From the NCBI GenBank assembly GCA_046545815.1, contig JBKGZA010000003.1, positions 1-54,774 of the forward strand: 54,774 nucleotides of DNA, written 5' to 3'. Every line of letters starts with the position of its first letter. Position 1 is the stretch's first letter. The notes under the pieces are model-generated. The model was not told the DNA's origin, ran no database searches, and saw only the letters and a program-made list of their open reading frames with translations. Positions 1,851 to 54,226 of this stretch are shown here, piece after piece. The position numbers were made by a program, and so were the translations under genes. This stretch comes from Bacteroidales bacterium. GTDB taxonomy: Bacteria; Bacteroidota; Bacteroidia; Bacteroidales; UBA12077.

Positions 1851-2369
1851 TTACTCTTGCTTGTTTTTATGGAGTTTATCTATAAGCTTTTCAATAAAAT
1901 TTTTTTCTTCTTCCTTTTTTCGCTTATTCTGGTTTTTCTTCAGGGCATTCAACAATTTCTCAATAAAGCCCGGTGCTTTATCCCGATAATCAGGGCAGGC
2001 ATAAGAAGAGGGATCGATATGATTGTATGTGAAATCCGTCAAATATTTGGAATTGGGGTGATGGGTATAGAGGTCATTCAGAAAATATCCGGCAAGGGGG
2101 AGTGCGGTAGCTGCTCCCTGTCCGTGGGCCAGAATTTTGAAGTGCACAGACGGATATTCTGCTCCCACCCAACTGGCAAAAACGAGGTTTGGCGTATAAC
2201 CGACAAACCAGCCATCTGCATGATCCTGTGTTGTACCGGTTTTTCCTGCAACTTCACCTGTAAATGTAAAGTTTGTCGTCAGTGACTGGGCAGTTCCCCT
2301 TTTTACAACATTTTGCAGCATCATGGTTACATCCCGGCTTAAATTTCTTATATCATAAAACCCTTCCAT
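1851..2369 (-). pseudogene. C-terminal fragment of a class A penicillin-binding protein (PBP1A-type)
   Basis: MLQNVVKRGTA...GKTGTTQDHADGWFVGYTPNLV is the KTG-containing end of a transpeptidase domain; SxxK, SxN, transglycosylase domain and TM anchor are missing. Confidence 0.75.
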
Positions 2370-2392: not shown

Positions 2393-2400
2393 CAAAGATA
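2393..2400 (-). promoter_or_regulatory. -7 promoter box (TATCTTTG) upstream of the PBP fragment
   Basis: TAnnTTTG consensus about 24 nt upstream of ATG 2369. Confidence 0.55.
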
Positions 2401-2401
2401 T

Positions 2402-2433
2402 AAAAAAACCGGAGGTGCCTGAAGCACCCCCGG
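2402..2433 (-). terminator. intrinsic terminator
   Basis: CCGGGGGTGC-TTCAG-GCACCTCCGG followed by T7; the G-U pair forms only on the minus strand. Confidence 0.75.
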
Positions 2434-2514
2434 AAAAAACCAATCACAAAAAGCAACCCAAAAAGAGACTATGAAAAAACAACCTAAACCATGAAAACTT
2501 CAAAAATTTATGTA
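2402..2514 (-). ncRNA. candidate small regulatory RNA
   Basis: Minus-strand terminator with no credible upstream minus-strand CDS; U/G-rich body with two TTTTCAT(G/A)GT motifs; ECF-like promoter at 2518-2543. Confidence 0.5.
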
Positions 2515-2710
2515 ATGATACATTATTTTGGGCAATTGGGTTTAAAACAATTGACCAGTAGAAGAATTTTGATTATGAACATGCGTTTTTAAATTATTAA
2601 TGCATTCAATTGGTGTATAGAATAAGGTTCATAAGGAATATGGTCAGGCAGAAAGAAGCTGTTTGAAAAACAGGATGCATTCATTAATTTAGCAACACAC
2701 AGAAAAGGAT

Positions 2711-3943
2711 ATGAAGCGATCGGGGCAGGCAGATCTGCCACTGCATAACGGAAAAGTTCCTCCATGGTTGTTTGAGCGGATGGCCAAACTTGGGGGCGCG
2801 GTCATTGAATGGATCGTACAGGAATATGGTAGTAGAGAGGTTATCCGGAAGATCAGCAATCCTTATTGGTTCCAGTCGCTGGGAGCAGTAATGGGAATGG
2901 ACTGGCATTCATCGGGTATAACCACTTCAGTAATGGGGGCTTTAAAAAAAGCTGTCAATCCAATGGCCCATGAGTTGGGTCTGTATGTTGCCGGAGGAAG
3001 GGGAAAATATTCGCGGCAAACGCCCGATGAATTGTTGCGCCTGGCCGAAAAAACAGGTTTAAACGGCAACCAGCTTGTAAGGAGCAGCCGGCTTAGCGCT
3101 AAAATTGATAATACAGCCATTCAGGATGGCTTTCAATTGTACCTGCACAATTTTATTGTCACTAGTACAGGGGAATGGGCAGTTATTCAGCAAGGCATGA
3201 ACGGCTCCAGCGGCATGGCCCGGAGGTATCACTGGCATTCGCAGAGGCTCAAATCATTTATTGAAGAACCCCATTCGTATATATGCGGACGTAATATGGG
3301 CCAGATAATGAATCTTACCGATAAGCATGCGAAGCCTTCAAGAGAAGGGATCATGCGGATCAGCAGGGAAAATCCTCAAAAGATGATCAAAGAGATTCAA
3401 AAGCTTGCCATGCCCTCCTACCACCAGGTACGGGCCGAAGATTTTGATCTGAAACGGCTCGGCTCCATACTCGCACTGACCTATGAGGGGCTGTATCAAG
3501 ATTTTGAATCGCTACTCCTCCTCCGTGGACTGGGTCCGAAAACCCTCCGTTCGCTGACCCTGGTAAGCGAAGTCATCCACGGAACTCCTTCAAGATTCAG
3601 GGACCCCGCACGCTTTTCCTTTGCCCATGGCGGAAAGGACGGGCATCCACATCCTGTGCAGACCAAAGTTTACGATGAAACCATCTCAGAACTTAAAAAT
3701 GCGATTGATCGGAGCAAAATCGGTTACAGTGACAAAAAGCAGGCACTCAAAAAGCTCTCGGGAATCTCCCGACAAATGGAAAAAGACTTCCAGCCCAATA
3801 ATCAGGAATATGAAAAATACCTCACCAAAGAAAAAGAAGAATCTTATCTATATGGAGGTCGGACAGCGTATGGGAAATCCAAACCACCTCACTCTAAAAA
3901 TCGCAGAAAAGACAAGGGACCCCAACAGCTCAGACTTTTCTGA
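2711..3943 (+). CDS. DUF763 domain-containing protein
   Basis: ADLPLH.G.VP.WL, WFQSLGAVMGMDWHSSGITT, FSFAHGGKDGHP motifs. Confidence 0.9.
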   Translation: MKRSGQADLPLHNGKVPPWLFERMAKLGGAVIEWIVQEYGSREVIRKISNPYWFQSLGAVMGMDWHSSGITTSVMGALKKAVNPMAHELGLYVAGGRGKYSRQTPDELLRLAEKTGLNGNQLVRSSRLSAKIDNTAIQDGFQLYLHNFIVTSTGEWAVIQQGMNGSSGMARRYHWHSQRLKSFIEEPHSYICGRNMGQIMNLTDKHAKPSREGIMRISRENPQKMIKEIQKLAMPSYHQVRAEDFDLKRLGSILALTYEGLYQDFESLLLLRGLGPKTLRSLTLVSEVIHGTPSRFRDPARFSFAHGGKDGHPHPVQTKVYDETISELKNAIDRSKIGYSDKKQALKKLSGISRQMEKDFQPNNQEYEKYLTKEKEESYLYGGRTAYGKSKPPHSKNRRKDKGPQQLRLF

Positions 3944-6886: not shown

Positions 6887-6987
6887 GCGATTTACTTTAT
6901 TATTAAAACAAATATCCCGGCTTTTGGTTTAGTTATACGAATAGTCACGTTCAGGATGAACCGATACGTCACAATTGAAAAATAACA

Positions 6988-8384: not shown

Positions 8385-9095
8385 TTAATGTCTGTCCCCT
8401 TTATCATCCAGCATTGGAACAAACCTTACCCCGGATATTTCCTTCTTTTTGATTTCCCCGTTTTCTTTTTCCAGCAGGACAAGATTCTGAAATATAGTTC
8501 CGCCTACAGGTATGACCATCCTGCCACCCTCTGCAAGTTGCTTTTTCAACGGTTCAGGGACATCAGAAGGAGAAGCGGTAACAATGATGCCGTCAAAAGG
8601 TGCATGTTCTTCCCATCCTTTGTAACCGTCCCCGATTTTAATGCGGACGTTGTCGTATCCTTGCTCCCGTAAGGTTTTTCTTGCCCGTTCTGCCAGTTCT
8701 TCAACAATTTCTATTGAATACACGTTAGGGGTAATCTTTGAAAGCACAGCGGCCTGATAACCTGAACCTGTACCTATTTCCAGCATTTTATCGCCTTTTT
8801 CAAGATTAAGGTAATCAGTCATCAGTGCTACGATATAGGGTTGAGAAATGGTCTGATCTTGTCCGATAGGAAGCGGGCGGTCAGAATAAGCCATATGCCT
8901 GTTTTGCTCCGGTACAAATTCATGTCTTTTCACAGAGCGCATGGCTTGCAAAACTTGTGGATCTTCGATTCCCCTTCTTTCTAACTGTTCTTCAACCATC
9001 TTCGTTCTTTGCTGTGTATAATTTTGAGCGCAAGCAGCAATCGGTAAAAAGATGGTCAAAATCATTATTTGAAAAACCGTATTTTTCATGGTCAT
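8385..9095 (-). CDS. pcm: protein-L-isoaspartate O-methyltransferase with signal peptide
   Basis: QTISQPYIVA, LEIGTGSGYQAA, APFDGIIVTA, VRFVPM motifs. Confidence 0.93.
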   Translation of the reverse strand: MTMKNTVFQIMILTIFLPIAACAQNYTQQRTKMVEEQLERRGIEDPQVLQAMRSVKRHEFVPEQNRHMAYSDRPLPIGQDQTISQPYIVALMTDYLNLEKGDKMLEIGTGSGYQAAVLSKITPNVYSIEIVEELAERARKTLREQGYDNVRIKIGDGYKGWEEHAPFDGIIVTASPSDVPEPLKKQLAEGGRMVIPVGGTIFQNLVLLEKENGEIKKKEISGVRFVPMLDDKGDRH

Positions 9096-31302: not shown

Positions 31303-32061
31303 TTAAACAATTTCTTCTGACAATAAATAAGCGGGTTCCGGAGAAATTTCCGGATCAAAATACAATTTACCGATGCTCAGTGTAACAATAAACCCAATTA
31401 TAGTTTCAACAAGAAAAAGACCGGAATAACCAATCCAGTCCCCGATTCCTCCGCTGATTACCACCACCAGCAAGCTGCTCAGGTGGGTTAATACAATCTG
31501 AATGGTATAGTCGGTGCCCTCTTTCCCTTTACGCACGGTATTCATAGAAATGGTGAATATGGCCACAGAGGCCATACCGTAAGCACTCCAGGTCAGGGCA
31601 ATTCCTGTATAAACCAGTACGATACTGGTATTTCCAAAAGCGATGAAGGTCATAAAGCCGGCAGCCACACAGCCATAAAAGGCAAAAAGCCGCAATCCGT
31701 TCATGTTACCCACCCGTTTTAAAATATAACCTCCCAGAAAAGCACTTCCCGCACCAAATGCCGTTCCGAAAATTCCTGTCATGAAAGCAATTTCTTTTAC
31801 CGTATAACCCATATCCACCAGATAAGGTTTAAGCATAGATAAGATGCCTATGATCCCTGCATAAAAAATCACCAGAAGCACTACCCTCCTGCCAATGCGT
31901 TTCTGATGAAAAAATCCCAAAATATTGGAAAAAGCGATCCTGGACAATGAATACTCCTCCATCCGCATGATCACAGGTAATACGGTGGAGAAGAAGCTCA
32001 TCGGAATGGATTGAGCAAGATAAAGGCTCAGTAATATGCCGTATTTCTGAATTGGCTTCAT
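31303..32061 (-). pseudogene. AmpG/RhtX-like MFS transporter with an apparent in-frame internal deletion
   Basis: First TM (LYLAQSIPMSFFSTVLPVIMR) joins directly to the C-terminal half; 252 aa versus about 400 aa for a 12-TM MFS. Confidence 0.65.
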
Positions 32062-39455: not shown

Positions 39456-39528
39456 TGACTCAGCTGGGTCTCGAACCCAGGACCCTCGCCTTAAAAGGGC
39501 GATGCTCTACCAACTGAGCTACTGAGTC
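39456..39528 (-). tRNA. tRNA-Lys (TTT)
   Basis: GACTCAG acceptor stem, AGCTCAGTTGGTAGAGC D-arm, TCGCC-CTTTTAA-GGCGA anticodon arm, GGTTCGAGACC T-arm; CCA not encoded; TACTTTTG promoter at 39533-39540. Confidence 0.96.
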
Positions 39529-43356: not shown

Positions 43357-43487
43357 GAAGCCGGAATTTTTGCCACGACCCAAAGTTAACAATATGAGAG
43401 AAAATATTTGTACGTTAGTATAAGTTTATAATTTTTGAAGAAGATGGAGATTGATTTTTTTTTTAAACAAATTAATTTTTGATTCGT

Positions 43488-47082: not shown

Positions 47083-47229
47083 AGCAATAATTTTTTGATT
47101 TATCTTTGAACTGTTTTTCCACATTTTTACGACAAAATTTTAGATTTGTTTGTTTATCTTTTGATGGATGCTATAGATTGAAAGCAAATATCAAACCAAA
47201 AGCGTAAAAATACAAACCTGTGCAATTTC

Positions 47230-53225: not shown

Positions 53226-53280
53226 AAAATTCATTTTTTGGATTGTTTTTTTTACAAACAACAACCACACCAAAATTGTT

Positions 53281-53781: not shown

Positions 53782-53883
53782 AAAATCAAGTTTTTATTAA
53801 ATTATTTGGTTAAGATATTTATTTGCAAAGGAAATGGAATATTTATACAATATCAAAAATTACGGTAAATAAATTAAAAAAAA

Positions 53884-54226
53884 GATGCAGCAGGCTTATA
53901 AGCCAGGTTCTGTTATCCGGCATGGCCGGATTTCCATCATTTATCTGAGCGACCTACCCCCCGGCATCGGGCGAGCAACCCTCAATCGCCGGTATACATG
54001 GTCTTGCAACCCATGGGTCTGGACAGCTATTCCGGTCACCCGGAATACTGGTGAGCTCTTACCTCACCTTTTCACCTTTTCCTCCGCCGGAGGCGAAGGT
54101 AGTTATTTTCTGCTCCGGAACCATATCCTCGCGGATACCTTCCCTTTCGGAAGCATGGTGCTCTGTGTTGCCCGGACTTTCCTTCTCCCACAAAGCGCAG
54201 GAGACGATGGAAAAGCCTGCTACATC
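53884..54226 (-). ncRNA. rnpB: RNase P RNA (type A)
   Basis: GAAGGAAAGTCCGGGC near the 5' end, ACAGAACCTGGCTTAT near the 3' end, P1 helix GATGTAGCAGGCTT/AAGCCTGCTGCATC. Confidence 0.96.

Follow-up and report, generated by a model that had tools for sequence, protein, structure and literature searches.

What is a strong transcription terminator doing on the minus strand of a Bacteroidales genome where no gene appears to end? The question arises at one locus of a 54,774-nucleotide contig stretch from an uncultured Bacteroidales bacterium, referred to here, at its full length, as the window. The first-pass annotation, made from the letters of the window alone, had proposed for this locus a small RNA (sRNA) that is transcribed from an ECF-like promoter and masks the start codons of many exported proteins. 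The comparisons described below show that the element between 2402 and ~2510 on the minus strand is real, non-coding and under selection, with conservation far above the neutral level, and that it very probably functions as a non-coding unit of the sRNA type, in which a free U/G-rich body is followed by a terminator; the masking and ECF parts of the earlier proposal found weak support or none.

The intrinsic terminator (2402..2433, minus strand) comprises a stem at 2433..2409 and a U7 tract at 2408..2402. The arms of the stem, CCGGGGGTGCT and GGCACCTCCGG, form 11 pairs, 8 of which are G-C, around a loop of 3, and the T7 run follows directly, so the G+C-rich stem-loop and the U tract on the transcribed strand that characterize Rho-independent terminators are both present. 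Runs of A flank the hairpin on both sides of the plus strand, which indicates termination in the minus-strand direction only. Across the five sequences compared, the stem is paired in 45/45 cells, versus 44-58% in slid controls; three stem pairs vary, on one side only (GC/GU, UA/UG) and with pairing retained, and the loop varies in length and sequence. Double compensatory changes are absent from the stem because five near-identical sequences are too small a sample. The annotation had also been right that the terminator has no credible gene to serve, as neither strand has a conserved open reading frame ending there, and that a U/G-rich stretch precedes it. This stretch is ~65 nt long and unstructured; the 67-nt body at 2434..2500 (minus strand) consists of 40 T, 15 G, 7 A and 5 C, and its invariant core (~2434-2483) reads UUUUUCAURGUCUCUUUUUGGGUUGCUUUUUGUGAUUGGUUUUUU. 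When 2400-2500 is folded, the terminator hairpin makes up the whole centroid structure and the body is essentially unpaired; the minimum free energy (MFE) of -23.4 kcal/mol (z -2.9) was equalled by 0 of 200 shuffles. Alignment and folding revealed no conserved structure beyond the terminator and a weak 6-bp helix, and neither an aptamer fold nor an antiterminator.

Two motifs resembling the antisense of start regions had been pointed out in the body, GTTTTCATGGTTT at 2498..2486 and GTTTTTTCATAGT at 2480..2468 on the minus strand, and both are present, but they differ in conservation. The anti-start-like motif GUUUUUUCAUAGU, the complement of ACUAUGAAAAAAC, at 2468..2480 (minus strand) is kept as UUUUUCAU(A/G)GU (UUUUUCAURGU) in all five copies, whereas the other anti-start motif, GUUUUCAUGGUUU at 2486..2498 (minus strand), is not conserved: its CAU occurs in two of the five copies only, those of the window's genome and G003, and is replaced by different letters in G010, G009 and L041.

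Copies were compared from the window's genome (G000), three genomes of the same genus (G003, G009 and G010) and one metagenome contig (L041). Relative to the window, the body is 96% identical in G009, 90% in G010 and 86% in G003. The divergent DUF763 gene next to the element (2711..3943, plus strand; PF05559, E 1.5e-135), which marks the conserved synteny, is only 40-46% identical at its four-fold degenerate sites (n = 146-148), that is, neutral sites are saturated; the flanking coding DNA is 76-78% identical, and the remaining spacer is riddled with indels. The core stays unbroken where ~50 nt are inserted in G009 between the terminator and the downstream promoter box described below, and where ~65 nt are inserted in G009 and L041 between the core and an upstream conserved block. 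A transcribed RNA accounts for this positional freedom better than promoter DNA does.

The distribution of the element is narrow. A covariance model (R1) built from four copies gave 81.7-111.7 bits on five sequences, and in the window's genome the element is single-copy. Strong matches were obtained in 4/16 genomes of the genus and 4/56 genomes of the family, with none in the 40 family genomes outside the genus, and among 151 genomes sampled from the order G000 alone matched, save for a weak 39.6-bit match in the 3' UTR of an unrelated gene. Pattern scans of public genome contigs returned the G009 and G010 records only, and those of public metagenome contigs one true member, L041. Of the checks that the annotation had called for, the covariance model recognized five copies and the Rfam search matched no family: at gathering scores, an Rfam 15 covariance search of the whole window yielded only RNase P RNA and a tRNA, both elsewhere, and a permissive search of 2200-2900 (E up to 10) had a best E of 0.42, from unrelated families, with no FopS, MicA or RybB. 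With the FopS model RF04319 (gathering 56 bits), the best scores of the genome were 21.7-25.9 bits, none of them at C3:2400-2500. The family is new, while the kind of element is already known.

Several further matches were discarded as homologues. L040, from the metagenome pattern scan, is a chance match in G+C-rich coding DNA; the weak covariance-model match at G004:C51 is an ordinary 3' terminator; those at 31860 and 18169 of the window are weak (E 0.19-0.86); the 39.6-bit match at G127:C183 lies in the 3' UTR of a secreted protein; and the apparent second copy at G000:C168 (E 0.009) is the start antisense of another gene plus a hairpin. Two of these loci have features of their own. At G000 C168:4053-4166 (L037 1500-1615), a hairpin and T-tract lie just downstream of the antisense of the gene's ATGAAAAAAAAG start, a possible cis-antisense RNA over the start codon, judging by this arrangement. 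At G127:C183:9892-9993 (L045 1501-1602), from another family of the order, UUUUUUCAUAGU precedes the terminator in the 3' UTR of the secreted protein, which has a T9SS-type C-terminus; the anti-start-like motif recurs here in a context unrelated to the element. The two RNA genes of the window, RNase P RNA class A (53883-54223, minus strand, 218.8 bits) and a tRNA gene (39456-39528, minus strand), are both ordinary.

On the other side of the element from DUF763, from which it is divergent in all relatives, lies what remains of a large gene. At the homologous place the four relatives G003, G009, G010 and L041 encode a full-length protein of 770-800 aa, and in 4/4 of these relatives the element stands 65-150 nt upstream of that gene on the same strand. 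The G009 protein has Transgly and Transpeptidase domains, which identifies it as a class A penicillin-binding protein (PBP). The window retains a remnant of 172 codons (1851..2369, minus strand) from the end of the transpeptidase domain, which covers only positions 209-267 of the 299-position PF00905 profile and, in the 768-aa G009 protein, corresponds to residues 604-731; this alignment implies that ~1.9 kb have been lost here, namely the start region of the PBP gene and ~600 codons. Comparison with G003 still reveals part of the former 5' UTR (GTTCCATAG...). The remnant frame is still open and its protein identity is 75% despite saturated neutral sites, which suggests that the loss is recent or that it represents a population or assembly variant. 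The genome has two further class A PBP genes: one on C51, 71% identical and extended by 130 aa at its N-terminus, and one on C1, 39% identical. The C51 protein (G000 C51:14287-17310, L031; ~1,008 aa) has an N-terminal ~130 aa rich in charged residues (MDLNHKIDKILHEIREIE...), and this charged extension was also observed in G009:C107 (L043) and G010:C234 (L044), that is, in three genomes in total. Just downstream of the remnant, a gene for a cold-shock-domain protein was found (PF00313; 1568-1843, minus strand). Cold-shock-domain proteins bind U-rich single strands, which makes this protein a conceivable partner of a U-rich RNA.

Immediately after the terminator, at 2393..2400 (minus strand), stands TATCTTTG, an exact match to TAnnTTTG, the -7 box consensus of Bacteroidota given in PMC7366714. 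The box reads TATCTTTG in G003 and G010 and TATCTTTA in G009 and L041. In G000, G003 and G010 the T-tract of the terminator abuts this box; in G009 and L041 the box has moved along with the PBP gene and not with the terminator. Most simply, it is likely to be the promoter of the PBP gene itself, and since it keeps with that gene, the RNA unit and the PBP unit would be adjacent but separable.

Upstream of the body no exact TAnnTTTG was found, only 7-of-8 matches at non-aligned places. An AT-rich conserved block occupies 2510..2612 (minus strand) instead, a candidate promoter or operator that holds AAAC-N17-TGTAT at 2543..2518. This upstream block (~95 nt), with AAAC-N16/17-TGTAT, is conserved in 4/4 readable sequences (G000, G003, G009 and L041); G010 was left out of this comparison, as ~100 of its bases read N (L024 377-476, G010:C191). 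The block has no consensus RNA structure (alifold energy 0), for which reason it is read as promoter or operator DNA, and a longer structured RNA including it was rejected on the same alifold result. If the block is the promoter of the RNA, transcription would give an RNA of ~110 nt here and one ~65 nt longer in G009 and L041. The AAC...GT layout of its motif recalls, to our eye, ECF promoters. Both patterns cited by the annotation exist, AAACC-N16-TGTAT at 2543..2518 and AAACC-N15-TGTTT before msrA at 6930..6906. The ECF-like pattern matched three times in the window versus 1.08 expected, a count that 10 of 100 shuffles reached, and among the 29 intergenic of 109 genome-wide occurrences of AAAC-N16/17-TGTAT no regulon or sigma gene was recognized. 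Farther upstream, a block conserved beside DUF763 in all relatives (2660-2700; GCTAAATTAATGAATG..TCCTGT in minus-strand reading) contains on the plus strand TAATTTAG, a 7-of-8 -7 box ~20 nt before the DUF763 ATG, which is probably the DUF763 promoter by its sequence and position.

Each RNA body was paired with its own PBP start region (-30..+60) and compared with 500 dinucleotide shuffles and with a background drawn from the window's genome, 2,585 start regions of ORFs called crudely from the first ATG with a minimum of 90 codons. Background duplexes averaged -21 to -26 kcal/mol, the best reaching -37 to -42, and the shuffles averaged -28 to -30 kcal/mol. The G009 duplex reached -46.7 kcal/mol, a value attained by 0/500 shuffles and 0/2,585 background regions, and that of L041 -42.3 kcal/mol (1/500 and 0/2,585). 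The duplexes of G010 (-33.6 kcal/mol; 68/500 and 56/2,585) and G003 (-28.6 kcal/mol; 199/500 and 136/2,585) are no better than composition predicts. Divided by segment, GAUUGGUUU against the leader (~-20..-8) ranks within the best 5-13% of the background for each of the four relatives, while GGUCUCUUUUUGGGUUGCUUUUUG against codons ~4-12 gives -28 kcal/mol in G009 and L041, compared with a background best of -22.9, and is unremarkable in G003 and G010. The window's own RNA paired with the G009 PBP start at -40.2 kcal/mol, better than with any of the 2,585 start regions of its own genome, and when the body was searched by BLAST against the 5.1-Mb G009 genome, the best match besides the element itself was to early PBP codons in antisense (E 0.083). 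As G009 and L041 are closely related, the strong pairing signal amounts to essentially one evolutionary observation. The complementarity in these two may reflect a selected interaction, what was left by an inverted duplication that created the RNA gene, or both.

In the window's genome this pairing cannot be observed, because the target has been deleted. No outstanding target took its place there: the best duplex, at -40.1 kcal/mol, lies on the smooth tail of the 2,585 start regions. The two other PBP genes of the genome, at ranks 318 and 1,958 of 2,585, are not favored as targets. G003:C363 (E 0.04) was rejected as one, since the similarity there is in the same sense within a coding region.

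The most prominent alternative is the one put forward at the outset, an envelope-stress sRNA under an ECF-type sigma factor whose UUUUUUCAU-type motifs mask the Met-Lys-Lys starts of many exported proteins, or else a sponge for an RNA-binding protein. The complements quoted for it do exist (ACCATGAAAA at 9092 and CTATGAAAAA at 47084, both minus strand, TATGAAAAAA at 53226, minus strand, and TATGAAAAAACA at 43487, plus strand). Taken singly, the matches do not exceed chance, as the annotation's caveat on A-rich sequence had warned: TATGAAAAAACA with at most one mismatch matched four times versus 1.5 expected, and 7 of 100 shuffles reached four. A genome-wide search for complements (blastn-short) found none above 14 perfect bases or 18 bases with one mismatch, all with E of at least 0.54. 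As for the four genes named as targets, pcm, the 47082 OMP, the 53225 porin and 43488, their duplexes rank only 703, 703, 2225 and 2344 of 2,585, which goes against the proposal, as does the poor conservation of the first motif. Taken collectively, start regions do show an excess. A perfect 10-mer complement occurs at -20..+20 in 123 of the 2,585 start regions versus 66 +/- 19-21 in shuffles (6/300 and 0/200 shuffles reached 123), 11-mer complements number 49 versus 21, no excess is seen at +21..+60, and the RNAs of the other four copies show a 1.4-1.7-fold k-mer excess at starts. Together with the motif UUUUUCAURGU kept in every copy and the ECF-like appearance we ascribe to the conserved upstream motif, these numbers favor masking, and so does the enrichment of k-mer matches for signal-peptide-like N-termini (odds ratio 4.1).

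However, the roughly two-fold excess arises because a single A/U-only motif, UUUUUUCAU, meets the commonest start, AUGAAAAAA. The start ATGAAAAAA is the commonest, with 72 genes, and UUUUUUCAU lies behind nearly all k-mer matches, most of the 10-mer matches originating in the motif at 2468..2480 (body positions 18-22); when only ATGAAA genes are considered, the odds ratio drops to 1.8. In terms of energy, signal-peptide-like genes pair worse than others (mean -23.5 versus -25.5 kcal/mol) and are under-represented among the best 100 for all five RNAs, with 16 for the window's RNA and 16-26 across the five, compared with 27% overall. Of the target enrichment that the annotation had asked for in support of MKK-start masking, a roughly two-fold k-mer excess at starts is found and an energy-based enrichment of exported proteins is not. 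The ECF-like motif, for its part, is not in excess in the window and its genomic occurrences outline no recognizable regulon. We regard the ECF-driven masking scenario as unlikely and as a weaker alternative to an sRNA linked to its PBP neighbor.

The proximity to the PBP gene also admits explanations in which no free RNA acts. The element could be a cis-acting PBP leader, a combination of attenuator and self-inhibitory 5' UTR, in which the hairpin stops most transcription and, on read-through, the U/G-rich leader folds onto the PBP start and lowers its translation. Its location directly upstream on the same strand in all four relatives speaks for such a leader. In each of them, the MFE fold of the read-through transcript joins 30-43 positions of the body to the start region, and according to PMC7815308 the 3' ends of E. 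coli transcripts commonly fall within 5' UTRs, where they can have regulatory roles. Yet pairing between U-rich and A-rich segments in a long fold is expected from composition, as the means of the shuffled duplexes illustrate, neither arm of the hairpin has a visible antiterminator partner, no aptamer-like fold is apparent, and the conserved exact -7 box after the terminator means that the PBP gene probably has its own promoter; the leader reading seems improbable to us. If the function resided in the DNA instead, as promoter or operator of the PBP gene insulated by the hairpin, with any RNA functionless, the T-tract abutting the -7 box in three genomes would be accounted for, and if the core had arisen by inverted duplication of the PBP 5' end and were now decaying, so would the resemblance of its reverse complement to that end in G009 and L041. 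Promoter DNA that depends on position does not fit a G009 core that is 96% identical despite ~50 nt separating it from the box, a decaying relic would not keep 86-96% identity while neutral sites are saturated, and the changes in the stem preserve pairing, all of which leaves a DNA-level role with quite a low probability. Least probable by far, and in our view scarcely tenable, is a small protein, whether the plus-strand MKKQPKP or MKTSKIY... or the minus-strand, TTG-initiated MKFSWFRLFFHSLFLGCFL. Such frames exist in the window, but no ORF over the element is conserved on either strand among the compared copies: ATG-started plus-strand peptides have 7 aa in G000, 13 aa in G010 and 17 aa, running off, in L041, with none in G009, the plus-strand reading of G003 is the tail of a GTG frame only, and a TAG interrupts the minus-strand frame in G003 and G010.

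The explanation we prefer is a self-contained gene, at 2402-~2510 on the minus strand, for a small non-coding RNA of ~100-110 nt. By analogy with GibS and FopS, this RNA would base-pair with A-rich translation start regions and block initiation. Its best specific target candidate, still unproven, would be the mRNA of the class A PBP (PBP1a-type) gene directly downstream in the relatives, where GGUCUCUUUUUGGGUUGCUUUUUG in the core on codons ~4-12 and GAUUGGUUU on the leader at -20..-8 would bracket the AUG. That gene's start region has been deleted from the window's genome, where what is left is the RNA gene, the box of the PBP promoter and the final 172 codons. That the locus is a new base-pairing sRNA gene, limited to one small clade within an uncultured genus of Bacteroidales, has, on the comparative evidence, about an even chance of being right. 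A bolder version, which we offer as a speculation with little probability, would have a lineage-specific sRNA that originated as an inverted copy of its neighbor's 5' end, is driven by an ECF-like promoter and clamps both sides of the PBP start codon, tuning peptidoglycan synthesis post-transcriptionally, while UUUUUUCAU may also damp many AUG-AAA-AAA starts. If this were true, Bacteroidota would gain their first sRNA-PBP1a circuit, and the birth of an sRNA gene would have been caught in the act. Few regulatory RNAs are known in Bacteroidota, nearly all of them from Bacteroides thetaiotaomicron, and we know of none that controls a class A PBP. A candidate sRNA beside a gene with which it can pair is a compact case for the origin of a regulator, possibly by inverted duplication of a start region, and bears on start-codon masking in bacteria without Shine-Dalgarno sites. 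The organism is uncultured and five copies are known, which makes the immediate reach modest.

Among known systems, MicA and RybB of enterobacteria are sigmaE-dependent sRNAs that repress envelope-protein mRNAs at their start regions. An ECF-driven sRNA repressing envelope mRNAs at starts is a conceptual parallel only to the present candidate, which, unlike them, has no Rfam match, occurs in a genome (91% completeness) in which Hfq was not found, and shows no energy-based enrichment of exported proteins. Closer are FopS (RF04319) and GibS of Bacteroides thetaiotaomicron, described in PMC11697453 and PMC7366714 as intergenic sRNAs that pair with translation initiation regions and repress translation. 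The candidate resembles both in its single-stranded 5' stretch and Rho-independent terminator, and the window's genome resembles Bacteroides in having RRM-type RNA-binding proteins (three RRM_1 proteins) and no detectable Hfq. However, it lacks sequence or covariance-model similarity to FopS, is single-copy whereas FopS has 14 paralogues, and at ~100 nt is longer and far more U-rich than FopS, with its 65-70 nt; unlike FopS and GibS, it has no recognizable canonical sigma-ABfr promoter, and its candidate target is the neighboring PBP gene and not susC-like genes. The RNAs that premature termination yields from E. coli 5' UTRs (PMC7815308) offer a third comparison. Unlike them, the candidate is separated from its downstream gene by a conserved -7 box and has no visible antiterminator, but it shares with them the arrangement in which a same-strand terminator upstream of a gene would free a short RNA that may act in cis or in trans.
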